A stretch of 64,000 nucleotides of DNA from Gammaproteobacteria bacterium (lineage in GTDB: Bacteria; Pseudomonadota; Gammaproteobacteria; Steroidobacterales; Steroidobacteraceae), in the NCBI GenBank assembly GCA_003164785.1, contig PLUE01000065.1, positions 30,003-94,002 of the forward strand, written 5' to 3'. The notes beneath the pieces were generated by a model. That model saw only the letters and a program-made list of their open reading frames with translations, made no database searches and was not told the DNA's origin. The position numbers and the translations under genes are program-made. This document shows, in pieces, positions 2 through 40,550 of this stretch (positions are counted from its first letter, which is position 1; every line of letters starts with the position of its first letter).

Positions 2-685
2 AGCAACGGGGCCTTCGTCAACGGGCCCATATCGTTCAAGTCGGACAACATCTGGAGCTACGAGGTGGGCGAGAAACTGCGCCTCTTCGACAATCGCGTG
101 ACCGTGAATGGCTCCCTGTACTTCGAGAAATGGAGCGGTGTGCAGCAAACCAACTCACTCTCCCAATGCGGTTACGTCTATTCGGTGAACGCGGGCGATG
201 CACATGTGCGCGGTGGCGAGCTCGAGATTCAGGCCATCGTCGTGCCTGAACTCACGGTGTCGGGAAATGTAGGGTACACGCATGCGGCGCTGGTGAGTTC
301 CACCCTCATCGATGCGGGATTCAGCCCGGGAACGGCCATCCAGGACGTGCCGCAGTGGACCTCCGCCGTGTCGGCGGCCTATCGACATAGGCTGACGGAC
401 CAATTGGTGCTCACGGCACGCGCCGACAACACCTATACCGGGAGCCGTACCGACGAGACCTACTCGATCAATGAGCTGCCGTCCTACGACCTCACCAACG
501 TTCGTGCCGGTGTGGAAGCGGGACATTGGTCGGCTGTTCTCTTCATGAACAACGTGGGGGATAAGCGGGCGCTCCTCAACAACGTCACGCAAGCCGCCGA
601 GAATATTCCGACCTTCAACCGGGTCGCGGTGAGCCAGCCGCGCACCGCCGGCATCGACCTGAGCTATCGCTTCGGCGGAACGTGA
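2..685 (+). CDS. TonB-dependent receptor, C-terminal part (5' end outside window)
   Basis: The frame is open from base 2 (SNGAFVNGPISFKSDNIWSYEVGEK...). The barrel-type C-terminus ends ...TAGIDLSYRF, typical of TonB-dependent receptors. Confidence 0.8.
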   Translation, partial: SNGAFVNGPISFKSDNIWSYEVGEKLRLFDNRVTVNGSLYFEKWSGVQQTNSLSQCGYVYSVNAGDAHVRGGELEIQAIVVPELTVSGNVGYTHAALVSSTLIDAGFSPGTAIQDVPQWTSAVSAAYRHRLTDQLVLTARADNTYTGSRTDETYSINELPSYDLTNVRAGVEAGHWSAVLFMNNVGDKRALLNNVTQAAENIPTFNRVAVSQPRTAGIDLSYRFGGT

Positions 686-6168: not shown

Positions 6169-8685
6169 ATGCTTCCCGCATGGATGGATTCGATATCGTT
6201 CCGCACCGAGCAGAACGGTGCTTGCAAAATACGCCTGATCGATGATCGGCCGCTGTATTCACCGCCGCAGTCGCTGAAGATTGCCAAACGATCAAGTGCT
6301 GCGGCCGCCGCTGCAGTCGCGATCGGAATTCTCGGCGGCTCCTTTGCTTTCAAGGTGATGGCCGAGACGGCGACCATGTCCGAGGACGCGGGCGCCGCTC
6401 TTGATGAGATCGTGGTAACGGCGCAAAAACGCGTATCGACGGTTCAGACGACGCCGATCAGCATCACTGCGGTCAGCGGCGCCGATTTGCTGGCTCGCGG
6501 CGTCTCCTCCTTGGCCTCTTTGGCGCAGGGCACGCCCGGCGTTTCGCTCAAGAGCGAAGGGCCCAGTCAGACGGAGATCGAGATGCGGGGCATGACCTCC
6601 AGCGGCGGCAACTCCGCCACGGTCGGCTTCTATCTCGACGACATTCCCTTGGCGGGGCCTGCAAGTGCCCAGAATGGGCACGTGGTGATCGACCCCGATC
6701 TCTACGACCTCAGTCGCGTCGAGATCCTGCGCGGGCCTCAAGGTACGCTGTTCGGGTCGGGTTCGATGGGCGGCACAGTCCGATTGATTAGCAACCAGCC
6801 GAACTTGACGGAGTTTCAAGCGACCACACAGAGTGTCTTGTCGGGCACCGACGGCGGCGGGTTCAATCACAAAGACAGTTTGATGGTCAACCTTCCTCTT
6901 ATCAACGACACCTTGGCATTGCGGGTGGCGGGAACGGAAGACTATACGAGCGGTTGGATCGACCGCATCGTAGTCAACTCCCTTCCAATAGCCGTTGGAA
7001 GTCCGGTCGGCACCGTGCGCGGCGACGTCCAGAACGCCCCCATCGAGAAGCAATATCCGGGCTCGAATGCCTATCAAACCTACGCAGTGCGCGCGAGTCT
7101 GCTGTGGAAGCCGATGGAAAACCTGTCGGTCACGCCGGCATTCTTCCACACGACCAGTACTCAAAACGGCATCAGTGCCTATGACAGCAATCCCGGTACC
7201 CTGGCGCACTACCAACCTTTTGACATCGCCGAACCGCTGACCGATTCGCTGACGGCCTACAGCCTCAATGTGAATTACAGTTTCCCGTGGTTCGATCTGA
7301 CATCGAGTACTGCGCGATGGACCCGAAACTCCTCTCAGGTAGAGGAGGCCAGCGAGGCCTTCAATAATCCGGCCGAAGGAATTACCTATGCCTCTAACAA
7401 CGGTCTTCCGAACCCTGGTTATTATGGCCCGACCGGGTCGGGTCCGCAGCACGGTATCGAAGACGATCCTTCCCATCAGTTCAGCGAGGAGCTGCGATTG
7501 GCTTCGACGGGGAACGGAAGAGCCAGCTGGGTTGGCGGGCTCTATTACAGCAATTACTACTCTTTGTGGGGCTTCCGGGGTACGACGCCCAATTACTCCT
7601 CGTATATGGATCTCGGCACGCTCGCGCCGGCAACCACACCCAACTGGTACGATGCCTACTCGCCTACCACGCTCTCGCAGTTTGCGGCCTTCGGCGACGC
7701 CACCTATGCTCTGACCGATGCGCTCAAGATCGATGTCGGCGCCCGCGTGAATCACTACGATTATCGCTTCTCTTCGTGCCTCAGCGGCTGGGGATCGGCT
7801 CACGGAGCCGCTACGCCCTCGTGTTCCGGTCTCATCGCGCTATCGAACAACAGTTTCAACCCCAAATTCAATCTAGCCTACACGTTCAGCCCGGACTTGA
7901 TGGCGTATGCAACCGTGTCGACCGGCTTCCGTCCCGGCGGGGGCAACGCGGTCTATCCGACCACGGGTGCCGCCTGGGGAGCGGCTTTCCAGCAGCAGGG
8001 TTATACGAGCGGCAAGTGGCCCTCGACGTACGCACCGGACTCTGTCTTGAGCTACGAGCTTGGCGAAAAGTCGCGATTCTTTGATCGCCGCCTGACGGTG
8101 AACACGAGTATCTATTATGAGGACTGGCGCCACCCCCAGCTCGAGGCGTATCCGAACGACTGGGCGCTCAACATCAACGGTGACTATGTCTCCATCTATG
8201 GCGCCGACATTGACATGCTCGCTGACCTGGGGGCGGGATTTCAGTTCGAAGTCGCGGCCGGCTACCTCTATGAATATCTGGATGGGGGCCCGCACTGGGT
8301 GATTACTCCGGTCCACAAGATGCCGGAGGTCTCGCCGGAGAGTGGGACCGTCGCTCTCAACTATTCCAAGCTGCTCGGTGCCTCCTACACGTTCACGGCT
8401 CGATTGGAAAGTTCCTACACCGGCCCGCGCTACTCGATCTACTTCTCGGACCCTTACGAGTTCACTGGTACGTACAGACAAATGCCCGGCTATGACCTGG
8501 TCAACGTCCGCGCGGGAATCAAGTTTCATGATAAGTGGAGCGCGACGGCATTCGTCAACAATCTCACCAACAAGCACGCCCAGCTGGAGAGCATGTTCAC
8601 GGAAAATGAGCCCCAACCGAGCTTCACCCGCATTGAAACCAACCAGCCGCTCACCGGGGGTGTCGACCTGACCTACCGTTTCTAG
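6169..8685 (+). CDS. TonB-dependent receptor
   Basis: Plug region DEIVVTAQKR...TPISITAV, barrel repeats, and terminal ...GGVDLTYRF. The start is uncertain: the signal-peptide-like segment AKRSSAAAAAAVAIGILGGSFAFKVMA begins 37 codons after the first ATG. Confidence 0.85.
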   Translation: MLPAWMDSISFRTEQNGACKIRLIDDRPLYSPPQSLKIAKRSSAAAAAAVAIGILGGSFAFKVMAETATMSEDAGAALDEIVVTAQKRVSTVQTTPISITAVSGADLLARGVSSLASLAQGTPGVSLKSEGPSQTEIEMRGMTSSGGNSATVGFYLDDIPLAGPASAQNGHVVIDPDLYDLSRVEILRGPQGTLFGSGSMGGTVRLISNQPNLTEFQATTQSVLSGTDGGGFNHKDSLMVNLPLINDTLALRVAGTEDYTSGWIDRIVVNSLPIAVGSPVGTVRGDVQNAPIEKQYPGSNAYQTYAVRASLLWKPMENLSVTPAFFHTTSTQNGISAYDSNPGTLAHYQPFDIAEPLTDSLTAYSLNVNYSFPWFDLTSSTARWTRNSSQVEEASEAFNNPAEGITYASNNGLPNPGYYGPTGSGPQHGIEDDPSHQFSEELRLASTGNGRASWVGGLYYSNYYSLWGFRGTTPNYSSYMDLGTLAPATTPNWYDAYSPTTLSQFAAFGDATYALTDALKIDVGARVNHYDYRFSSCLSGWGSAHGAATPSCSGLIALSNNSFNPKFNLAYTFSPDLMAYATVSTGFRPGGGNAVYPTTGAAWGAAFQQQGYTSGKWPSTYAPDSVLSYELGEKSRFFDRRLTVNTSIYYEDWRHPQLEAYPNDWALNINGDYVSIYGADIDMLADLGAGFQFEVAAGYLYEYLDGGPHWVITPVHKMPEVSPESGTVALNYSKLLGASYTFTARLESSYTGPRYSIYFSDPYEFTGTYRQMPGYDLVNVRAGIKFHDKWSATAFVNNLTNKHAQLESMFTENEPQPSFTRIETNQPLTGGVDLTYRF

Positions 8686-8728: not shown

Positions 8729-8816
8729 GCGACGGCATGCGCGTTAGCCAACCAGAAGTGAAACGCAGGTGCGCGGCTGGTATAGTCGTTGTAACGTCGT
8801 TGTTGAGGTTTACACG

Positions 8817-9071
8817 ATGACACAGCCAGCGCCCCTGTCCACCGTCATTGTCGGGGGCCGGACGGTCAGAGAGAACCTCGAGCATGCCGTGATGAGCGGC
8901 GCCGTGCTGCAGCATCCAGACGGCAGATATGAACTGGCTGAATCCGCATCCGACAAGCCGCCGGTGCTGGATCTGTTCATGCGGCCCTTGTCGCGGGCGA
9001 CCTCCCTGCCGTGTGCGTTTCTAAACCGGTTCCTCCGTTGCCCCATCCCACCAAGAGTGGATCGGAAATAG
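8817..9071 (+). CDS. Hypothetical protein (84 aa)
   Basis: ATG preceded by GAGG. The first ~65 codons have G/C-rich third positions. The 3' end overlaps the next ORF by 61 nt in another frame. Confidence 0.4.
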   Translation: MTQPAPLSTVIVGGRTVRENLEHAVMSGAVLQHPDGRYELAESASDKPPVLDLFMRPLSRATSLPCAFLNRFLRCPIPPRVDRK

Positions 9072-9475
9072 ACAATCCCGAGAATCCGCATCCCTATGGC
9101 ACCTACCTTTATTTGAACGGTATCAATCAGGCACGCGAGGTCTATCGCACCCTGCGGAGACAGATCGACGGGCACGAACACCTGGGCCCCAACGTCCAAA
9201 TGCTGATCAAGCGCGGCTGCACCAATTACGAGCGCAAATGCGGCCCCTCGGACCGGTATAGCTTCGATCCGGCCCTGGGAGCGGTCGAAGCGGAATTGTC
9301 CGAGCGGTTCATCAAGCCCGTCCAGCCCATCCCTCCCAAGGTTCGAAACCCACTCAGGCTGATCGAGATCATCAAGATCGCGTATCGCAGCGGTGACGAG
9401 ACCTATAAAGATTTCACCCACGGCAGGAACCTGTTGCCGCCGACCATCGCCTATCCGCCCGAGCCCGGAAGCTAG
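9011..9475 (+). CDS. Hypothetical protein (154 aa from GTG), Pro-rich N-terminus, ends ...TIAYPPEPGS
   Basis: G/C-biased third codon positions in a locally AT-richer stretch. The stop lies 7 nt before the PqqD-like start. No recognisable motif. Confidence 0.45.
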   Translation: MCVSKPVPPLPHPTKSGSEIDNPENPHPYGTYLYLNGINQAREVYRTLRRQIDGHEHLGPNVQMLIKRGCTNYERKCGPSDRYSFDPALGAVEAELSERFIKPVQPIPPKVRNPLRLIEIIKIAYRSGDETYKDFTHGRNLLPPTIAYPPEPGS

Positions 9476-9482
9476 ACCCAAG

Positions 9483-9791
9483 ATGAACAGTACTCTGCGC
9501 TTCGAACTCGATACCCCGGTCAGATGGCATCCAGAGCACATCGCGGGCGAGGTCAACGGCCTGGTCGTGGTGCTGGGCATGTCCCAAGGCAAACATGTCG
9601 GCTTCGACGCGATGGCGACCCACGTCTGGCATCGCCTCGAATGGACGCAGACCGTGTCGGAACTATGCGACGGCCTCGCCAAGGACTTCGATGGCGATCT
9701 GGTCGTCATTCGGCAGGATGTCATCGACCTCTTGACTCAACTGCAGGAATTGAAGCTGGTCGAGATCGGGGTCGGCGATCTTTCGGCTTGA
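9483..9791 (+). CDS. PqqD-family protein (RiPP recognition element, lasso B1-like)
   Basis: 102 aa. The segment ...GLVVVLGMSQGKHVGFDAMATHVWHRLEWTQTVSELCDGLAKDFDGDLVVIRQDVIDLLTQLQELKLVEI matches the PqqD/RRE pattern: a beta strand, then ...LN.tA..iW..l....tv.el, then ...Dv..fl..L...gLv. Confidence 0.8.
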   Translation: MNSTLRFELDTPVRWHPEHIAGEVNGLVVVLGMSQGKHVGFDAMATHVWHRLEWTQTVSELCDGLAKDFDGDLVVIRQDVIDLLTQLQELKLVEIGVGDLSA

Positions 9792-9855
9792 CGCTGGCGC
9801 AGCCTCGCCCGACCGCATCCTCTATGGCTATCGCCTGCGCACGGATCTGCCGCTG

Positions 9856-10707
9856 GTGTCGTTGCCGCCGGCGGTTGGGGACGGCGCGCCCGAGATCGAA
9901 CTGCGCTGCAGCGACATTCCTCAGAGATTGGACGCGCCGGCTTGGAGCAGTCCGTTCATCGATATCGGAACGGACGGCAACGTGTTGATGCGCCTGGGTC
10001 AGCACACGCGCTTCCTCATCCGTGGAGGACGCGAGGTCATCGTGGACGAAGGCGCGGCGGCGCATATGCCGGATGTCGAAACCTTCCTGGTGGGGGCCGT
10101 GTCGGGCGTGCTGCTGCACCAGCGCAACGATTTGGCCCTGCATGCGAGTTGCGTTGCCATCGACGACCGAGCCGTTGCCTTCGTCGGCCCGTCGGGCCGG
10201 GGCAAATCGACCCTGGCCGCGTTTCTTGCCGCGCGTGGATTCGCGCTCTTGACCGACGACGTTTGCCGAATAGTGTTCCAACGTCAGCATGTGTGCGTCG
10301 TCCCGGGCTCCTGTCGCCTGAGATTGTGGCCGGACGCGGCGCGCGCGCTGGATCACGCCCCGGAAACGCTGCCGACGGGGCGGTCCGGCCATCCCAAGCG
10401 CGTTCTGGTCCTTCCTGTTGGAAGCGTCGATCCTGTTCCTTTGGCTGCGGTCATCCGATTGGCAATCGATACCCGCCTGAAGACCCCCAGTCTGAGCAGG
10501 TTATCCGGACCTGCCTCGGTCATGCCGGTGGAAGACCTGCTCTACCGGGCGCGCCTGGGTCGCCGCCTCGGGCGTCGGATCCCGCTGTTCCAGGGCCTCA
10601 CCCGTCTGGCGGGCCTGGTCCCCGTTTTCAGCCTGACGCGCACCGGGGATATGGCGGATTTGCCGGGCCTGGTCGGTCTGGTGGCATCGGTCATGACGGG
10701 CGGCTGA
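9856..10707 (+). CDS. HPr-kinase/phosphorylase-like P-loop kinase (RiPP-associated HprK-related type)
   Basis: P-loop FVGPSGRGKSTLAAFLAARGFALLTDD. Coordinates start at the first canonical start (GTG 9856). The family-typical N-terminal motif LYGYRLRTDLPL is encoded in-frame upstream at 9820-9855. Confidence 0.8.
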   Translation: MSLPPAVGDGAPEIELRCSDIPQRLDAPAWSSPFIDIGTDGNVLMRLGQHTRFLIRGGREVIVDEGAAAHMPDVETFLVGAVSGVLLHQRNDLALHASCVAIDDRAVAFVGPSGRGKSTLAAFLAARGFALLTDDVCRIVFQRQHVCVVPGSCRLRLWPDAARALDHAPETLPTGRSGHPKRVLVLPVGSVDPVPLAAVIRLAIDTRLKTPSLSRLSGPASVMPVEDLLYRARLGRRLGRRIPLFQGLTRLAGLVPVFSLTRTGDMADLPGLVGLVASVMTGG

Positions 10708-11552
10708 TGGCCGGGGTGCAGTTCGGCTGGCTGGTCTCTTATCCGAAATCCGGCAACACTTGGATGCGGATGATGCTCTCCAGCCTGATGTCGGGCGGTG
10801 GATCGGTCGATATCAACGCGATCGATAGCAGGATCGGCATCGCGACCTTCGCCGAGATGGACGAATTCCTGGGCGTCGAATCCTGCGAATTGACTCGCGA
10901 GGAGATTGCGATCGCACGCCCGGCCCTGCATGCCGCGATCGCCGCCGATCACGATGAGCCCCTGATCCTGCGCAAGGTCCATGACCGCTATTGGAGAACC
11001 CCCTCGGGCGGCGCCGCTTTCGTCCCAGACATCAGCCGGGGGGCCGTGTATCTCGTGCGCGATCCACGCGATATCGCCGTCTCTTATTCCCATCATCGCG
11101 GTAGCGAGATCGACCGCATGATCGGTCAAATGGCCGACGACGACGTCGCCCTGGCGAGCGCGACCTTGCGCGGGAAGGAACAGTTGCCTCAACCTCTTGG
11201 GTCGTGGAATGGACATGTTCTGTCGTGGTTGGATCAGACCGAGATCCCCACCCTGGCCATGCGCTATGAGGACATGCTCTCTGCCCCAACGGCCTGTCTG
11301 GCCAAGGTCGCGATGCATCTGGGCATCGACACCGCCGAGGCGCATCTACACGCGGCGGTCGTCGCCACCGGGTTCGACATCCTGAGCATCCAGGAAAATG
11401 CCTCCGGCTTTCGTGAACGGCAGACCTCGGCGATGGCAGCGTTTTTCCGGCAGGGCCGCTCCGGCGGCTGGCGCGAGCAGCTGTCGGCGGCCCAAGCGGA
11501 CCGCATCGTCGATCGTCACGGCGCAGTCATGGCTCGGTTCGGTTATCTGTGA
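10707..11552 (+). CDS. PAPS-dependent sulfotransferase family protein
   Basis: 5'-PSB loop YPKSGNTW and 3'-PB motif VRDPRDIAVS. The ATG overlaps the kinase TGA (TGATG). Confidence 0.85.
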   Translation: MAGVQFGWLVSYPKSGNTWMRMMLSSLMSGGGSVDINAIDSRIGIATFAEMDEFLGVESCELTREEIAIARPALHAAIAADHDEPLILRKVHDRYWRTPSGGAAFVPDISRGAVYLVRDPRDIAVSYSHHRGSEIDRMIGQMADDDVALASATLRGKEQLPQPLGSWNGHVLSWLDQTEIPTLAMRYEDMLSAPTACLAKVAMHLGIDTAEAHLHAAVVATGFDILSIQENASGFRERQTSAMAAFFRQGRSGGWREQLSAAQADRIVDRHGAVMARFGYL

Positions 11553-11564
11553 CCTGCGAACCGT

Positions 11565-12238
11565 TCAGTTGGTGCCCTCCGCCCAGGCGATGAAGGCGCC
11601 GACGCTCAATGCACCACTCAGAAGCGCACTGAACCCGGACCTCTGGCGTTCCGCCGCCACCGTATCGGCCGGCCAGTTGCCGATCATAGGGTCGAGACGA
11701 TCGAGGTCGAGCAGGCGCTGCGCGGTTGGCGACCGCCGCAGCCGCTCCATCAGGGCCGGCAGCGACGACCGAGCTTCAGACAGATGGGCGAACCATTCCG
11801 GATGCTGCCGCCCTCGCAACTTGTTCTCCGTAACGGCGCGGGGCACCCCCGCCGCGCGCAGCAGGCGGCGCGCAAGATAACGGTTCGTGCCGTTCTCGAG
11901 GAACTGTTCCTCCGGGATGGCGAGACAGAATTCGACGAGTCGCAGATCCGCGAGCGGCATCAAACTGTCCAGCCCGTGAATGCCCCGCAGGGCGTTGACG
12001 AGGTCCGGCCGCCGGCTCCGCCCGCGTTTCAGCGCCTGAATCCGCAACAGGCGGCTATCCGGCGACAAGACGAATCTGGTGTCATTGCCTCGTTGCCGCA
12101 TGCGTTCGCGAAGGCCGAGTTGAGCGAGCGACTCATCCGTCGCGACGCCAGACCCGGCTCGTCCGGCGGTGCAAGAGGACGGACCGGGAGAGCCTCCCCG
12201 CCGGACCCCAGCCATGCGGCCCCGACGAATGAACTCAT
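11565..12238 (-). pseudogene. Asparagine-synthetase-like lasso cyclase (C protein), internally deleted and frameshifted
   Basis: The N-terminus MSSFVGAAWLGSGGEAL... starts at ATG 12238 and resembles AsnB/lasso-cyclase starts. The C-terminal ~190 aa lie in another frame (...GLDSLMPLADLRLVEFCLAIPEEQFLENGTNRYLARRLLRAAGVPRAV...) and match an Asn synthetase C-terminus. Only 674 nt are available, against the ~1.5-1.9 kb expected. Confidence 0.55.
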
Positions 12239-12252
12239 GGCGAGTGCGGCCG

Positions 12253-12417
12253 CTAACTCGTGGAGCCACTTGCATGGTCACTATGTACGCCGATACTGCT
12301 GAGCGTTCCGCGCTCGACATCCAGAACCGACACTTTGGGCCGCTGCCACTGGTTCCGAACGACCGTAGGCCGCTCGTCCGCTCCGGCTTCCTCGTCTGCC
12401 TCTTCGTTCATTTCCAT
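12253..12417 (-). CDS. Candidate lasso-peptide precursor (54 aa), absent from the ORF track
   Basis: Sequence MEMNEEADEEAGADERPTVVRNQWQRPKVSVLDVERGTL|SSIGVHSDHASGSTS. Leader W-x-x-P-x-V motif, Thr at -2, Ser1...Asp8, C-terminal Ser. GGTGGGGA lies upstream of the ATG pair. The stop is 14 nt before the cyclase remnant. Confidence 0.55.
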   Translation of the reverse strand: MEMNEEADEEAGADERPTVVRNQWQRPKVSVLDVERGTLSSIGVHSDHASGSTS

Positions 12418-12591
12418 CGTTCCCCACCCGGTGATGCTGCCATTCTGCGCGCGACGTGCGGCCCTTTCCCTTGGAACTCACCATCGAGAATAGGATCGAA
12501 CTTCGGCGAATGCACGCTGCGATGCACGAGCGTAAACGCGGTGCGTTGACGAGCGGACGGTCCGGGCGGGGCGCAGGAAGCGGAGTGGATA

Positions 12592-13218
12592 TCAACGAGC
12601 CGTTGGCTCGAAGCGACTAACCTCGATTCCCGCGCCGACGGGCAACAGCACGCTCGTGATGCCGGGCTTTGCGCGGACGGCGCTGACGTAGCGCTTCACC
12701 GGCTCTCCGCCCGGGTACAGAATGTTGTCCGCAACGATGACTGCACCTGGATTGAGCAATGGATAGAATGCCTCGAGGCAGGGTACGTAGAGATCTTTCC
12801 AGAGATCGAGCAGTACGAAGTCGATGCCGCGCGGGAGGCTTCCAATCAACTGCACTGCGTCGCCGACCTTGAAGTCGACATGGTCGGCGAGGCCGGCCTT
12901 CGTGGCCATGTCGCGCGCATAGGCGGACTTGTAGTCTTTGAGTTCTAACGTCGTCAGGCGGCCGCCACTTGCCCGCGCGGCTTCCGCCAGCCAAATTCCC
13001 GAATACCCATAGGACGTCCCAATTTCCAGGATATTGGGCGTCTCGAGGCTGCGGGCGATGATGTTGATCAATCGTCCCGTCTCCGGTCCAACCGCAAGGA
13101 GCTGGCGGTCCCGCCAGTCTTCCGATCTATCGGCTGGCGCCGCGTTGTTTCGCAGTTCCCTTTCTGCGTGCATGCGCTCGTGGTACATGTCGAGAACCGC
13201 ATCGATTCGATCATCCAT
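12592..13218 (-). CDS. Class I SAM-dependent O-methyltransferase (family 3, caffeoyl-CoA-OMT-like)
   Basis: SAM motif I ILEIGTSYGYSGIWLA, then ...LTTLELKD..., DFVLLDLWKDLY, and GAVIVADNILYPG. Confidence 0.85.
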   Translation of the reverse strand: MDDRIDAVLDMYHERMHAERELRNNAAPADRSEDWRDRQLLAVGPETGRLINIIARSLETPNILEIGTSYGYSGIWLAEAARASGGRLTTLELKDYKSAYARDMATKAGLADHVDFKVGDAVQLIGSLPRGIDFVLLDLWKDLYVPCLEAFYPLLNPGAVIVADNILYPGGEPVKRYVSAVRAKPGITSVLLPVGAGIEVSRFEPTAR

Positions 13219-13375: not shown

Positions 13376-13616
13376 TTCGCACCGCCGCTGGAAGGACTGA
13401 TAATGGGCACCCGCAGCGGGGACATCGATTTGGCAATTGCGTCAACATAGGGAGGATGCCGACGTCGATCTTGCGGTGAATATGTTCGGTTATCGCGTCA
13501 AGAAGTACATTGGTGCTCATTTGGCCGCGCTTGGCGGCGCGGATGCCATCGTCTTCGGCGGCGGGATTGGCGAGAACGAGGGACTGATGATGGCCCATCA
13601 TGCCGCGCGCGCTTGA
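13376..13616 (+). pseudogene. ackA: Acetate kinase remnant (two out-of-frame fragments)
   Basis: [19 protein letters not shown] (frame 2, stop at 13448-13450) and [41 protein letters not shown] (frame 0). Both match conserved acetate kinase segments. About 80 of ~400 aa remain. Confidence 0.6.
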
Positions 13617-14538
13617 TCGCCCGGTAACGCGCGCGCAGGGCAAGGCTCGCGGCGGACCGCGACGACAATCATCGAGCGGCGCAGACGTCGCGTCCCCGCT
13701 TTCCGTCCCGTTCAAGGTCGCCGCGCGACCCGCCCATTCGCTGCACGATGCTGCCCTGAGCCTCGTCGACGGCGCGATCGATACCTTGAGGCGGCGTCAC
13801 GACGACCAGGCCATCCATGCGGCCCGCAAGGCCTGCAAACGCATCAGAGCCGCATTGCGCCTGTTACGTGGGTGCTTGGGGCCCGGTGTCTACCGGCGCG
13901 AGAATAGGAGGGTTCGGGACGCAAGCAAGCCCCTCACCGCGGTCAGGGATGCCTTTATTCTGCGAAAGACACTGGGCGCGCTCCCTCATCGTCCGGTCGC
14001 TTTCCAGCGCGGCCTGGATTCGGACTATCGAGCGGAACGACAGGTACTGGAGCGCCGAGGAGCGCGTCGCGCTCTCAATCTGCTCACGGAGACTCGCGCC
14101 AGGCTTCTCGACCTGCCGTCGGTCGGCTCGGAGGCGGCGTCAGCCATTGCCGGCGCCAGAAGCGTCTACAAGGCCGGACGCAAAGCCCTCAGAAACGCCC
14201 GGCACAGGGATGATGAAGCGCTGCACGAGTGGCGCAAGCAGACCCAATACTTGGTGAATCAACTCGAGCTTCTGAAGTCCGTATTCAATGCCAAGTTCGG
14301 CAAACTCCACCAGAGTGCGGAGAAGATAGCCGACGCATTGGGGGATGACCATGACTTGGGCGTCCTCATGAGCAAGCTGCAGGCCTACGAGGCACCCGAT
14401 GAATCCTTCATGAAGGTCATCAACAAGCGACGCGGCAAGCTGCAGGCGCGCGCGTTTCGCATGGGAAGGAAATTATACCGGCACCCGGAAAAGCACTTCG
14501 AAGCGATCGTGGCGGCGCGTTTGTCGAGACCCAAGTAG
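13600..14538 (+). CDS. CHAD domain-containing protein
   Basis: [20 protein letters not shown]...[17 protein letters not shown]...[11 protein letters not shown] pattern, typical of CHAD helical repeats. Confidence 0.75.
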
Positions 14539-18022: not shown

Positions 18023-18958
18023 TCAATACACTTCGGGCACCAGCATCTCCGCCGGCACCGACTGCCGGGAGTAGTGTTCATGACGTTCGCGCAGCGGCAG
18101 CACGATCGGCGTCTTCGGCAACTCGGCATAGGGAAATTGCTTCAACAGATGATCGATGCAGTTCAGGCGGGCGCGCTTCTTGTCGACCGCCTGCACCACC
18201 CACCATGGTGCCTCGGGGATGTGCGAACGTTCGAGCATGATCTCCTTCGCCTTGGTGTACTCCTCCCAGCGGCGTCGCGATTCAAGATCCATCGGGCTCA
18301 ATTTCCACTGCTTCAGCGGATCGTGAATCCGGCCTAGGAAGCGAATATATTGCTCGTGATCGGTGATCGAGAACCAGTATTTGATCAAGCGAATCCCCGA
18401 GCGCGCGAGCATGCGTTCGAATTCGGGCACGGAGCGGAAAAACTCTTCGTATTCCTCGGGCGTGCAGAATCCCATCACCTTTTCGACGCCGGCGCGGTTG
18501 TACCAGCTGCGGTCGAACAGCACCATCTCGCCGGCGGCCGGAAGGTGGGATACGTAGCGCTGAAAATACCACTGCGTCCGTTCGCGATCGTTCGGCGCCG
18601 GCAGGGCCGCGACACGGCACACGCGCGGATTCAGCTTCTGAGTGATTCGCTTGATGGCGCCGCCCTTGCCGGCGGCGTCACGCCCCTCGAACAGAATCAC
18701 GACCTTCTGCTGGGTCGCGACCACCCAATCCTGCAGCTTGACGAGTTCGGCCTGCAGGCGATACAGCTGCTGGAAGTAGCTTCGCCGAAACGTCCTTCCT
18801 TCGGCGGAGTCGGCCGGCTTGTCCTCTCCCGGGAGGGGATGGCGATCCTCGATCTCCATCTCCAGCTCTTCGTCGTAGCTGTCCTCGAGATCGCGCCGGA
18901 TGCCGCGAATGAGTTCTTCCTGATCGAGCGCTGGATTGGTGTTCGTATTCATAGGCAC
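18023..18958 (-). CDS. ppk2: Polyphosphate kinase 2
   Basis: VVILFEGRDAAGKGGAIKRI (Walker A), FDRSWYNRAGVEKVMGF, and a lid region typical of PPK2. Confidence 0.9.
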   Translation of the reverse strand: MPMNTNTNPALDQEELIRGIRRDLEDSYDEELEMEIEDRHPLPGEDKPADSAEGRTFRRSYFQQLYRLQAELVKLQDWVVATQQKVVILFEGRDAAGKGGAIKRITQKLNPRVCRVAALPAPNDRERTQWYFQRYVSHLPAAGEMVLFDRSWYNRAGVEKVMGFCTPEEYEEFFRSVPEFERMLARSGIRLIKYWFSITDHEQYIRFLGRIHDPLKQWKLSPMDLESRRRWEEYTKAKEIMLERSHIPEAPWWVVQAVDKKRARLNCIDHLLKQFPYAELPKTPIVLPLRERHEHYSRQSVPAEMLVPEVY

Positions 18959-38213: not shown

Positions 38214-40550
38214 ATGAGTGCCAAAATTTTCTCCGTCGGCTCGGTGTTCGAGAAGGTGTTGCGTGAATTCGAAGCCGGTGGCTTTACCTACACGGATGTT
38301 CTTTTCCATTTGAGGCGACTGCTGGACAGCGGCGAGTCGCCGGACGCACCGTCGGAACTGCTGGAGGTCGTCCAGCGCCGTGAGCGGGTGGAGCCGCTAC
38401 CGGAATACGCGCATATCAAAATCCTCGGCCTCATCAATGAGGAGATCGCTCGGCGGGCTGTCGAAGCGGACGCCTCCGCAGCGGCGGACCCAACGGCGGA
38501 CTCCGTTACGGGCGCCGCAGCCGCGCCGCGCTCGGAATCGGCGTCCGGCACCGCGGCAGCCGCGGATCGAACACCGAAGGCGGAGTCCGACTCCCAATCC
38601 GCGGCGTCGGCCGCGAAGTCGCTGGCGGAGCGACTGGCCTGGCAGAATGCTGCTTATGAGGCGTTGACACGTTCCCATGAACGCAGCAAGGACGCCGAGT
38701 CGTCGGCGGTGCGGTGGGCGACCGCGCTCGCGACGGAGCTTGCGGATGCCGGCGCGGCCCTCGCCGAGACCCGCACCGCCCTCGCGTCGGCGCGGGGAAA
38801 GGCGCGGGACTATGCCGAAGCGCTGGCCGAGAGAACCGAGGCGGCCGAGGCGGCGCGGGGCCGCCTTGAAAGCACGCGTCACGAAGCCGATAGTCATCAG
38901 GCTGAGGCCCGCAAATTACGCGATCTGCTCACGGCGCGAGACGCCACCCTCGTCGACGCGCTGCACTCGCTCGGCGAACGTGATGCGCAGCTGGTGGCGC
39001 TGCAACAAGAGCAGGCGAGAATCGTCCCGACCCTCGAAGCGCGGGCGACGGGCAGCGAGCAATTGGAGGCCGAATTGCGCGCCGCGCTTACCCGCACCGA
39101 GGCGCTTGAGGCCGAACTCCTGGCCGTGCGGACGGCACTCGAGTCGGCGCGCGGCATGGCGCAGGAATTGGACGAGTCATTGGCCGAGAGCTACGCGGCG
39201 GCCGACGCGGCGCGCACGCGCACCGACGCGCTGCAGCAGGAATCGGCACGTCATCAGGCAGATGTGCGCGAGGCACGTGCACACGCCGACGCGCTGGCAT
39301 TGCAGCGGACATCTGAACAAGAAATAGCGGCCGCTCGCGAGGCCCGTCTGCAGCGCGCCGAGTCCAATCTGATCGCCGTCCAGGAGGAATTGGAGGCCGT
39401 CAGGGCGCAGTCGAATGCCTATCGGGCGGCTTTGCAAACTCGCCAGATCGACGCGCAGGTCGTCGGGGCCGAGGCGGTCGAACCCGAGGCGGTCAGGGCC
39501 GAGGCGATCGAGGTCGACCCCGTGGAGCCCGTAAAACCTGGGGCCGCGTTCACGCCGCCCGCGGGGAGCGGCAGACGCACCCCGGCCGGGCCGATCGGTC
39601 GAGCGGTCTGGTTGAGAGTCGCGGTGCTGCTGCTCACGGCGGTCGGCTGGATTTTTCTCTCCCACCATTCGACCCGCGCGACGCCCGTGCCGGCGACCGC
39701 TCCGGTTCCAAGCCCCGACGCGGTGGGCGCGGTGATTCGCGACTGCCCGACCTGTCCCGCCATGACGGTGCTGCCTGCCGGCAAATTCAAGCAAGGCGCG
39801 TCACGAGCCGAGGGCGCGGTGTCGTTCGAGACTCCCCTGCATTGGGTGATCATCGGCCGACCCTTTGCCATGTCGACGAACACCGTCACCGTGGATCAAT
39901 TCGACCAATTCATCGCCGCGACCGGGCGGGACATGAAAGGCTGCGATACCTATGACGGCGAATGGAAGACCCGGCCCGAGTCCAGCTGGAGGAACCCAGG
40001 TTTCGATCAGACCGGGGGTCATCCCGTGACCTGCGTTTCCTGGGACGATGCCAAGGCCTATGCCGACTGGTTGTCGAGCAAGACCGGCCATCGGTATCGA
40101 CTGCCTAGCGCATCGGAGTGGGAGTTTGCCGCGCGTGCCGGCGGTGCGGACGTTCAGCCCTGGAGCGCGGATGGAGCCGGCGCTTGCGCCGACGCCAACG
40201 TCGCGGACGCGAGCGCCGCGCGGCGCTATCCGGGGCTGACGGCGTTCGCGTGCGACGATCGCTTCGTGCACACGGCGCCGGTCGGCTCGTTCAAGGCCAG
40301 CGCATTCGGGCTCAACGACATGCTCGGCAATGTCTTTCAGTGGACCGAGGATTGCTGGCACGCGGATTACGTCGGTGCACCGATCGACGGCTCCGCGCGC
40401 ATCGACGGAGATTGCTCGAAACATGAACTGCGCGGTGGCTCCTGGTTCAGCGCGCCGGAGCACGTGCGCGCCAATTACCGAAATGCCTTCGCCGCCAATC
40501 ATCGCACCAGCAGCGCCGGCATTCGATTGGTCAGAGACCTTCAGCAATGA
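38214..40550 (+). CDS. Coiled-coil / single-TM / FGE-sulfatase (SUMF1-like) domain protein
   Basis: 778 aa. An ~80-aa N-terminal domain is followed by ~350 aa of Ala/Glu/Arg-rich heptad-like sequence with an internal duplication. TM segment VWLRVAVLLLTAVGWIFLS. The C-terminal FGE domain shows HPVTCVSWDDAKAYADWLS, YRLPSASEWEFAAR, GNVFQWTEDCW and RGGSWF. Confidence 0.8.
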   Translation: MSAKIFSVGSVFEKVLREFEAGGFTYTDVLFHLRRLLDSGESPDAPSELLEVVQRRERVEPLPEYAHIKILGLINEEIARRAVEADASAAADPTADSVTGAAAAPRSESASGTAAAADRTPKAESDSQSAASAAKSLAERLAWQNAAYEALTRSHERSKDAESSAVRWATALATELADAGAALAETRTALASARGKARDYAEALAERTEAAEAARGRLESTRHEADSHQAEARKLRDLLTARDATLVDALHSLGERDAQLVALQQEQARIVPTLEARATGSEQLEAELRAALTRTEALEAELLAVRTALESARGMAQELDESLAESYAAADAARTRTDALQQESARHQADVREARAHADALALQRTSEQEIAAAREARLQRAESNLIAVQEELEAVRAQSNAYRAALQTRQIDAQVVGAEAVEPEAVRAEAIEVDPVEPVKPGAAFTPPAGSGRRTPAGPIGRAVWLRVAVLLLTAVGWIFLSHHSTRATPVPATAPVPSPDAVGAVIRDCPTCPAMTVLPAGKFKQGASRAEGAVSFETPLHWVIIGRPFAMSTNTVTVDQFDQFIAATGRDMKGCDTYDGEWKTRPESSWRNPGFDQTGGHPVTCVSWDDAKAYADWLSSKTGHRYRLPSASEWEFAARAGGADVQPWSADGAGACADANVADASAARRYPGLTAFACDDRFVHTAPVGSFKASAFGLNDMLGNVFQWTEDCWHADYVGAPIDGSARIDGDCSKHELRGGSWFSAPEHVRANYRNAFAANHRTSSAGIRLVRDLQQ

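Follow-up and report, generated by a model that had tools for sequence, protein, structure and literature searches.

The closest described systems to the locus presented here are the lasso-peptide gene clusters that carry a kinase. In these clusters the C-terminal Ser of the linear precursor is phosphorylated by an enzyme with an H-K-D-D motif, and sulfotransferase and nucleotidyltransferase genes have also been noted among them (PMC8498205, PMC9266682). In the case of pseudomycoidin, the proteins B1 and B2 were dispensable in vivo (PMC6993621). We have analyzed a locus of this kind in a 64-kb stretch of contig PLUE01000065.1 (positions 30,003 to 94,002; assembly GCA_003164785.1), referred to below as the window. 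Like the Firmicutes clusters of paeninodin (PadeK), ThcoK and pseudomycoidin (PsmK) and that of SyanK in Proteobacteria (Sphingobium yanoikuyae), it has an HprK-like kinase with the His/Lys/Asp/Asp residues next to a PqqD-family RRE (recognition element of RiPPs, peptides made on the ribosome and then modified post-translationally) and an Asn-synthase-like cyclase, a precursor that ends in Ser and accessory transferase genes. A first-pass annotation had described a lasso-type RiPP locus with a gutted cyclase and an intact RRE-kinase-sulfotransferase arm, and had left three readings side by side: a maturation core encoded elsewhere, a locus in decay, or a module acting on another substrate. The intact clusters of relatives bear out the lasso-type locus with its gutted cyclase, and the lesions visible against them support the second reading; for the first and the third no positive support was found in the 64-kb window. 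We consider it very probable that a kinase-type lasso-peptide cluster conserved in alphaproteobacteria is present here in a copy that was pseudogenised recently. Since the cyclase, the first gene of the operon and the kinase start all carry lesions, no lasso peptide can be made from this locus alone.

Domains were assigned by scanning the open reading frames (ORFs) of the window with Pfam and NCBIfam hidden Markov models (HMMs), and the relatives were mapped by tblastn and blastn. A protein search with the kinase gave at least 434 homologues, and the contigs of the closest ones were examined (loci labelled L007, L008, L092 and so on). Besides, a genome scan with one genome per species and a 19-sequence kinase alignment provided 80 further loci, annotated by tblastn and with an HMM of B2 (PF13471-type, Transglut_core3) that was built from six B2 proteins of related clusters. 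The closest relatives, L007, L008 and L092, have kinases 72-82% identical to the one in the window and carry the same block, composed of a gene of a family without name, called UNK here (254-279 aa), PqqD, the kinase (296-308 aa) and the sulfotransferase, with a 632-aa cyclase and a 54-aa precursor running convergently. Because this block is the same in the three loci, the convergent layout of the window is ancestral and not the product of a rearrangement. The synteny comparison that had been proposed at first pass finds PqqD, kinase, sulfotransferase and cyclase co-localised in one conserved block. Convergent clusters without B2 are those of L007, L008, L092, L009/L013, L014 and L019. A second type is colinear, in the order UNK-B2-2OG (2-oxoglutarate) oxygenase-PqqD-K (kinase)-ST (sulfotransferase)-A-C, and was found in Rhodospirillum rubrum, Novispirillum itersonii, Niveispirillum, Elstera litoralis and Ferrovibrio. 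In the GTDB representative set no kinase was more than 63% identical to that of the window, and the nearest named relatives were Telmatospirillum, Rhizomicrobium, Azospirillaceae and Rhodospirillales metagenome-assembled genomes.

The plus-strand genes that had been listed at first pass (84-aa, 154-aa, PqqD, HprK-like and sulfotransferase) and those of the minus strand are all found in their places by the ORF map and the HMM scans. The spacings were also exact: the 7-nt gap lies at 9476-9482, TGATG is shared at 10705-10709, and the arms end 12 nt apart (11553-11564). Set against the intact relatives, the cluster reads as follows:

8817-9034, plus strand: UNK 5' fragment, the genuine part of the 84-aa ORF, equivalent to residues ~12-84 of the L007 UNK
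9035-9036, plus strand: UNK deletion junction, 115 nt lost with a frameshift, ~38 codons including the invariant CxxC (CAACYKVKVV)
9036-9475, plus strand: UNK 3' fragment in the other frame, the genuine part of the 154-aa ORF, equivalent to L007 residues 115-266
9483-9791, plus strand: PqqD-family RRE (lasso B1), 102 aa, PF05402, ORF intact
9789-9855, plus strand: damaged kinase 5' end, TGATG changed to TGACG (ATG to ACG at 9791-9793), the following stretch 10 nt shorter than in L007
9856-10707, plus strand: HprK-like P-loop kinase ORF (lasso K type), 283 aa from the GTG at 9856, ~22-25 ancestral N-terminal residues absent
10707-11552, plus strand: Sulfotransfer_1 protein (3'-phosphoadenosine-5'-phosphosulfate, PAPS, type), 281 aa, intact, its start overlapping the kinase stop (TGATG)
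11565-12119, minus strand: cyclase 3' remnant (Asn-synthase-like C protein), last ~185 codons and stop, no PP-loop
12108-12119, minus strand: cyclase deletion junction, ~1.22 kb lost, frameshift, GGCCGA(G/A) microhomology
12120-12238, minus strand: cyclase 5' remnant, ATG at 12238 and ~43 codons, reading into a 69-aa junk ORF (12029-12238)
12253-12417, minus strand: lasso precursor, 54 aa, leader MEMNEEADEEAGADERPTVVRNQWQRPKVSVLDVERGTL followed by core SSIGVHSDHASGSTS

The cyclase had been noted as reduced to 674 nt, and this is the length of the remnant at 11565-12238. On the minus strand the Asn_synthase fragment covers only positions 205-343 of the 354 of the PF00733 profile. In tblastn the 3' remnant is 78% identical to aa 444-632 of the L007 cyclase and the 5' remnant matches aa 1-58 of the L007 and L008 enzymes. 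Residues ~44-443 are deleted, and what remains (~1-43 and 444-632) stands in different frames. At the nucleotide level (blastn), window 9036-12119 corresponds to L007 9237-12336 and window 12108-12417 to L007 13550-13886, and in L007 a copy of GGCCGA(G/A) stands at each end of the segment that the window has lost. The SGGLDS PP-loop, located at aa 260 of the L007 cyclase, falls inside the deleted part, and for this reason adenylation and ring closure are impossible for the window protein. The cyclases of the relatives are 592-632 aa long and reach 196 bits on NF033535. In the window no full-length cyclase with a PP-loop (SGGxDS) was found, and no second cyclase appeared anywhere in the 64 kb.

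The second lesion affects the first gene of the plus operon. The two ORFs at its beginning (84 aa, 8817-9071, and 154 aa, 9011-9475, both on the plus strand) belong to no known family, and the first-pass annotation had considered these upstream proteins as candidate substrates of the module. In tblastn both map, in different frames, onto a single 266-aa protein of L007, the 84-aa ORF with 79% identity to UNK aa 4-84 and the 154-aa ORF with 84% to residues 115-266, showing that they are two halves of one broken conserved cluster gene. As separate genes, or as substrates, they can be discarded. In blastn, window 8806-9034 aligns with L007 8892-9120, and L007 9122-9236 is absent from the window, where the junction reads ...AACCGGTTCCTC followed directly by CGTTGCCCC.... 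UNK proteins are ~255 aa long and Cys-rich, with four invariant cysteines (C65, C86, C89 and C172 in P0133). The 115-nt deletion takes two of the four, and the CxxC that goes with it is invariant in the alignment of 40 UNK homologues. Neither split UNK halves nor the 178-aa C-terminal cyclase fragment occurs as a separate conserved gene in any relative examined.

UNK genes were located at L007:8870-9670, L008:8808-9647, L092:1589-2353 and L010:7635-8408, the broken copy of the window being at 8817-9475. All the loci inspected have UNK inside a lasso-type cluster with kinase and sulfotransferase, where it usually opens the operon. The full-length UNK proteins matched no family of Pfam or NCBIfam. 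An AlphaFold model was confident, with a pLDDT (predicted local distance difference test) of 90.7, and its best Foldseek matches in the PDB were ferredoxin-like sub-domain resemblances, at E >= 0.03 and uninformative.

The third lesion is at the start of the kinase, for which we compared DNA and protein with L007, L008 and L009. The PqqD stop and the kinase ATG are joined in TGATG in both L007 and L008. In the window the change of this ATG to ACG, together with the 10-nt shortfall, leaves the conserved DRILYGYRLRT codons (9811-9855) without an in-frame start. This segment is an N-terminal motif conserved in the kinase alignments, and the first usable start, the GTG at 9856, lies past it. The "intact arm" of the first-pass annotation is therefore not intact, its first gene being split by a frameshifting deletion and its kinase having lost the start codon and the N-terminal DRxxYGYRLRT segment. 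The window kinase is probably inactivated, judging from its reading frame. Otherwise, it is 82% identical to the L007 kinase over aa 11-308 and retains the catalytic His (LHASCV), GRGKST and LLTDD, which are invariant or nearly so across 33 homologues. Its assignment as HprK-like holds: the profile of the kinase family matches solved HPr kinases (E 4e-5), but the window protein stays under the gathering score of PF07475 (E 3e-5) and far from the cut-off of TIGR04352, its best NCBIfam match (40 bits against 200, P-loop region only). The TIGRFAM "HPr-rel-A system" that had been brought up at first pass does not hold, with the intact L007 kinase scoring 37.6 bits.

The remaining genes of the cluster are open. 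The precursor candidate of the first-pass annotation is confirmed as a 54-aa ORF conserved in the relatives, with 61-63% identity to its counterparts in L007 and L008. Its leader has the conserved WxxPxV...LDVERGT, and in the sequence ...LDVERGT-L/SSIGVHSD... a Thr at -2 is followed by Ser1 and Asp8 (Ser1 and Asp7 if cleavage takes place one residue later). The core SSIGVHSDHASGSTS has, accordingly, its Asp at position 8 or 7 and a C-terminal Ser. It ends in ...SGSTS, and the precursors of all relatives end in (S/D/T)TS. The lasso precursor pattern is kept in L007, L008, L092, L095 and R. rubrum. The PqqD protein scores 40.6 bits on PF05402 (gathering score 23.4) and is 70% identical to that of L007; its best NCBIfam match is lasso_PqqD_Bac, with 33 bits and under the cut-off of 80. 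The sulfotransferase, 77% identical to the L007 counterpart, scores 75.2 bits on PF00685 (gathering score 22) and has the 5'-phosphosulfate-binding motif PKSGNTW (5'-PSB) and the 3'-phosphate-binding motif RDPRD (3'-PB). Among proteins of solved structure, those closest to it are aryl sulfotransferases and three that act on glycopeptides, Teg12, Teg14 and StaL.

In order to compare the constraint on open and broken genes, we estimated dN/dS (nonsynonymous over synonymous change) by the Nei-Gojobori method, partitioned onto the window branch using L007 and L008. The dead fragments gave 0.35 and 0.14 (UNK) and 0.24 (cyclase 3' part). Among the open genes the values were 0.26 for the kinase, 0.21 for the sulfotransferase, 0.41 for the precursor and 0.85 for PqqD, the last one noisy in such a small gene. 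These data do not show that selection has kept the tailoring arm, since the ratios of the open genes are no lower than those of the dead fragments. Most of the divergence predates the deletions, and dN/dS cannot tell a retained gene from one not yet hit. The dead fragments carry no further stops or indels and have ratios like those of the open genes, and the lesions are therefore recent relative to the divergence from L007 and L008. The open genes seem to be under no stronger constraint than the dead fragments, and the arm that had been called intact is best read as not yet hit.

Several observations weigh against recent pseudogenisation. PqqD, sulfotransferase and precursor are uninterrupted, and the 283-aa kinase ORF keeps all the catalytic residues, similarly short kinase calls being found in the database. 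The part of the genome that is visible amounts to 64 kb, and a second intact cluster, or a cyclase and a protease acting in trans, would be possible. A kinase-sulfotransferase pair without cyclase persists in two other lineages (L015/L094 and L093) and may have a use of its own. Finally, the chemical steps considered below are drawn by analogy, and the cluster family has no characterised product.

Persistence of the pair is the point on which an alternative could be built, namely that the PqqD-kinase-sulfotransferase module has been kept after the loss of the cyclase for another job, on a linear peptide (this precursor or other) or on a non-peptide such as a component of an exopolysaccharide (EPS). 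An independent decay was observed in an uncultured Rhodospirillales species (L015:2953-3600 and L094:7493-11824, one species by their 99% identical kinases and 100% identical sulfotransferases). There the UNK-like gene, B2, 2OG oxygenase, PqqD, kinase and sulfotransferase are open, the cyclase is reduced to its final 17 codons, the precursor is gone and the gap is filled by AT-rich unrelated DNA. Decay thus recurs in this cluster type, with cyclase and precursor lost independently in L015/L094, and this also speaks for decay in the window. At L093:8608-10406 an intact kinase-sulfotransferase pair, 63-67% identical to that of the window, has no PqqD, UNK, precursor or lasso cyclase with it and adjoins PAP2, Wzy_C, radical SAM/SPASM, MurJ and an EPS-type Asn synthase. 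More distant UNK clusters (L096 and L097) with NTP_transf_5, a second sulfotransferase-like gene, an Asp/Arg hydroxylase and B2 are located inside exopolysaccharide loci (Wzz, Wzy_C, Poly_export and glycosyltransferases). All this, and the open PqqD, sulfotransferase and precursor of the window, would fit such a residual function. However, in the window both the start and the frame of the kinase are gone, the operon is broken in its first gene, and the dN/dS values, up to 0.85 in PqqD, give no sign of a stronger constraint. Besides, the cyclase is the largest target, ~35% of the cluster, and two or three independent losses are not statistically remarkable. We regard a retained module as unlikely.

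More improbable still is that a full-length cyclase and a leader peptidase elsewhere in the genome complement the locus in trans and that the pathway still runs. The absence of B2 from the window, reported at first pass, is confirmed by the B2 HMM (best E 1.9 in 64 kb). The same is true of the ABC exporter, a frequent but not constant member of lasso clusters: tblastn with that of L008 gave no match, and neither the called genes nor the sampled ORFs included an ABC_tran. However, the relatives are in the same situation. No B2 was found by the HMM within ±10 kb in L007, L008, L009, L014 and L019, nor in L092 by tblastn and Pfam gene calls, and the HMM does find B2 in the colinear type, as tblastn and Pfam gene calls do in L094 and L095. 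Because the closest intact convergent relatives are also devoid of B2, its lack is a trait of the convergent sub-clade and does not come from decay. Nor is there an ABC exporter within ±10 kb in the intact relatives nearest to the window (L007, L008, L092, L009, L014 and L019), and decay is not the cause of its absence from the window either. A trans-acting or host protease must then serve the sub-clade, which favors complementation, as do the intact and conserved precursor gene, the dispensability of B1 and B2 in pseudomycoidin mentioned above (PMC6993621) and a second Asn-synthase-like gene at the edge of the L007 locus. Against it, neither another cyclase nor a B2 or an ABC exporter is present in the 64 kb, a lasso cyclase is as a rule specific for the precursor and RRE of its own cluster, and UNK, kept by every close relative, is also dead.

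The truncated layout is real. A kinase of identical sequence in the same layout was found on at least 24 contigs from independent metagenomes. An assembly or sequencing artefact of a metagenome-assembled contig, which might be suspected of a source that seems metagenomic and for which no isolate genome was found, is rejected as having practically no chance, since the same layout (178-aa cyclase, 84- and 154-aa calls, 283-aa kinase) recurs on independently assembled ENA, Logan, JGI and NCBI contigs and the 154-aa fragment is also known in a variant with 99% identity.

Homology to the L007 and L008 clusters (blastn) has its left edge at ~8799-8806 and its right edge at 12417. Two features lie just outside:

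8758-8786, plus strand: sigma-70-like promoter match (GTGAAA, 17 nt, TATAGT, with TG), ~30 nt upstream of the first gene of the plus operon, a consensus match only
12592-13218, minus strand: cation-dependent family-3 (catechol-OMT-like) O-methyltransferase (OMT), Methyltransf_3, a neighbor outside the conserved cluster

The first-pass annotation had included the O-methyltransferase in the minus arm. The gene is there, but it lies outside the block, where homology has already stopped, and no homologue was found beside the cluster of any relative. As a tailoring enzyme of the precursor this catechol-OMT-like protein was discarded. On the left, a complete TonB-dependent receptor (6169-8685, plus strand) abuts the cluster outside the homologous block, and a partial one (26-673, plus strand) matches the last third of that receptor, at its C-terminus, with 31% identity. 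To the right of the locus are a CHAD-domain protein (13600-14538, plus strand) and a PPK2 polyphosphate kinase (~18023-18952, minus strand), a few kb apart and separated by an MMPL transporter and an aldo-keto reductase; the neighborhood probably has to do with polyphosphate and is unrelated to the cluster. Farther away, a 778-aa protein (38214-40550, plus strand) has a C-terminal FGE-sulfatase (formylglycine-generating enzyme-like) domain and a 500-aa N-terminal part without assignment. The window has no nucleotidyltransferase and no tRNA gene that could mark an integration site, and a terminator scan gave nothing better than shuffled sequence. Among the relatives, three tandem phage-tail-collar-domain genes lie beside the clusters at L007:14455-17505, L008:13986-17035, L015:3570-5834 and L096:12654-15183. 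The trio appears in four otherwise different contexts, accompanied by DUF6916 in L007, L008 and L096 and by a GNAT acetyltransferase in L007, L015 and L096. The GNAT gene and the precursor gene of L007 overlap.

By analogy with the characterised kinase-type systems we can propose how the intact ancestor might have worked. It would have had a plus operon of UNK, RRE, kinase and sulfotransferase and a convergent unit with the 54-aa precursor and the 632-aa cyclase, as in L007, L008 and L092. The RRE would bind the conserved leader (W-x-x-P-x-V...LDVERGT), and the kinase would phosphorylate the side chain of the invariant C-terminal Ser on the still linear precursor, as PadeK, ThcoK and SyanK do. 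The PAPS-dependent sulfotransferase would place sulfate on one hydroxyl within the conserved S-G-S/D-T-S tail, or perhaps on the phosphate. The leader would be removed by an enzyme not encoded in the clusters of the B2-less sub-clade, and the cyclase would adenylate Asp8 (or Asp7) and close the macrolactam ring on the new N-terminus. The window copy itself shows the microhomology-mediated ~1.22-kb deletion in the cyclase, the 115-nt frameshifting deletion in UNK and the loss of the kinase start, the remaining genes being not yet hit.

The window locus, as a dead cluster, is of little import itself. It provides a clean example of early decay of a biosynthetic gene cluster by short-homology deletions, and the comparison with relatives largely resolves the earlier puzzle of an intact arm with missing core genes. 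More important, it points to an uncharacterised and fairly widespread alphaproteobacterial variant of phosphorylated lasso peptides, with a kinase-coupled sulfotransferase, a Cys-rich UNK always present in close relatives and a sub-clade without a recognisable leader peptidase. Its chemistry would be better sought in the intact L007, L008 and L092 or in the culturable Rhodospirillum rubrum and Novispirillum itersonii. There is a slim chance that UNK is a new lasso maturation factor (e.g. a leader peptidase or a scaffold) in the B2-less clusters and that the PqqD-kinase-sulfotransferase module has a ring-independent role, giving phospho- or sulfo-modified linear peptides. If true, such a role would explain why the module survives repeated loss of the cyclase (window, L015/L094 and L093).

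Among known systems, the HPr-rel-A system (HprK-related kinase A, TIGR04352) resembles the window locus in the match over the P-loop region and in having a PqqD-family partner. However, the kinase is not a member at these scores, and the local PqqD scores best on the lasso PqqD models, although below threshold. Lassomycin-type C-terminal O-methylation also has an O-methyltransferase gene upstream of the precursor on the same strand. The methyltransferases of that type are protein-isoaspartate-methyltransferase-like, whereas the window enzyme is of the catechol-OMT-like family 3, outside the block and absent from the cluster of every relative. The R. rubrum-type colinear cluster is much closer, with the same families of UNK, PqqD, kinase (~50% identity), sulfotransferase (~57%) and cyclase, and with a precursor that shares the LDVExGT leader end, Asp8 and the ...STS C-terminus. 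It differs in having a Transglut_core3 B2 and a 2OG-Fe(II) oxygenase and in being on one strand, while the type of the window is convergent and without B2.

Compared with lasso clusters in general, the window locus lacks two defining features, a full-length cyclase and B2. Compared with the kinase-type clusters, the likeness of its kinase to PadeK, ThcoK and SyanK is one of motif and context; the Bacillus and Novosphingobium kinase-type loci were recovered as distant homologues, with 25-34% identity. In the searched literature we found nothing specific on a sulfated lasso peptide or on a lasso peptide of R. rubrum. What the family of the window has of its own is the translational coupling of the kinase to a Sulfotransfer_1 protein and the Cys-rich 255-aa UNK. 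Its closest relatives add the convergent layout without B2 or ABC exporter, and the window copy is non-functional. Functionally, the locus belongs with the kinase-type lasso clusters (paeninodin, ThcoK, PsmK and SyanK), and as far as the searchable literature shows, its family is an undescribed variant of them, defined by the coupled sulfotransferase, UNK and a convergent B2-less sub-clade.

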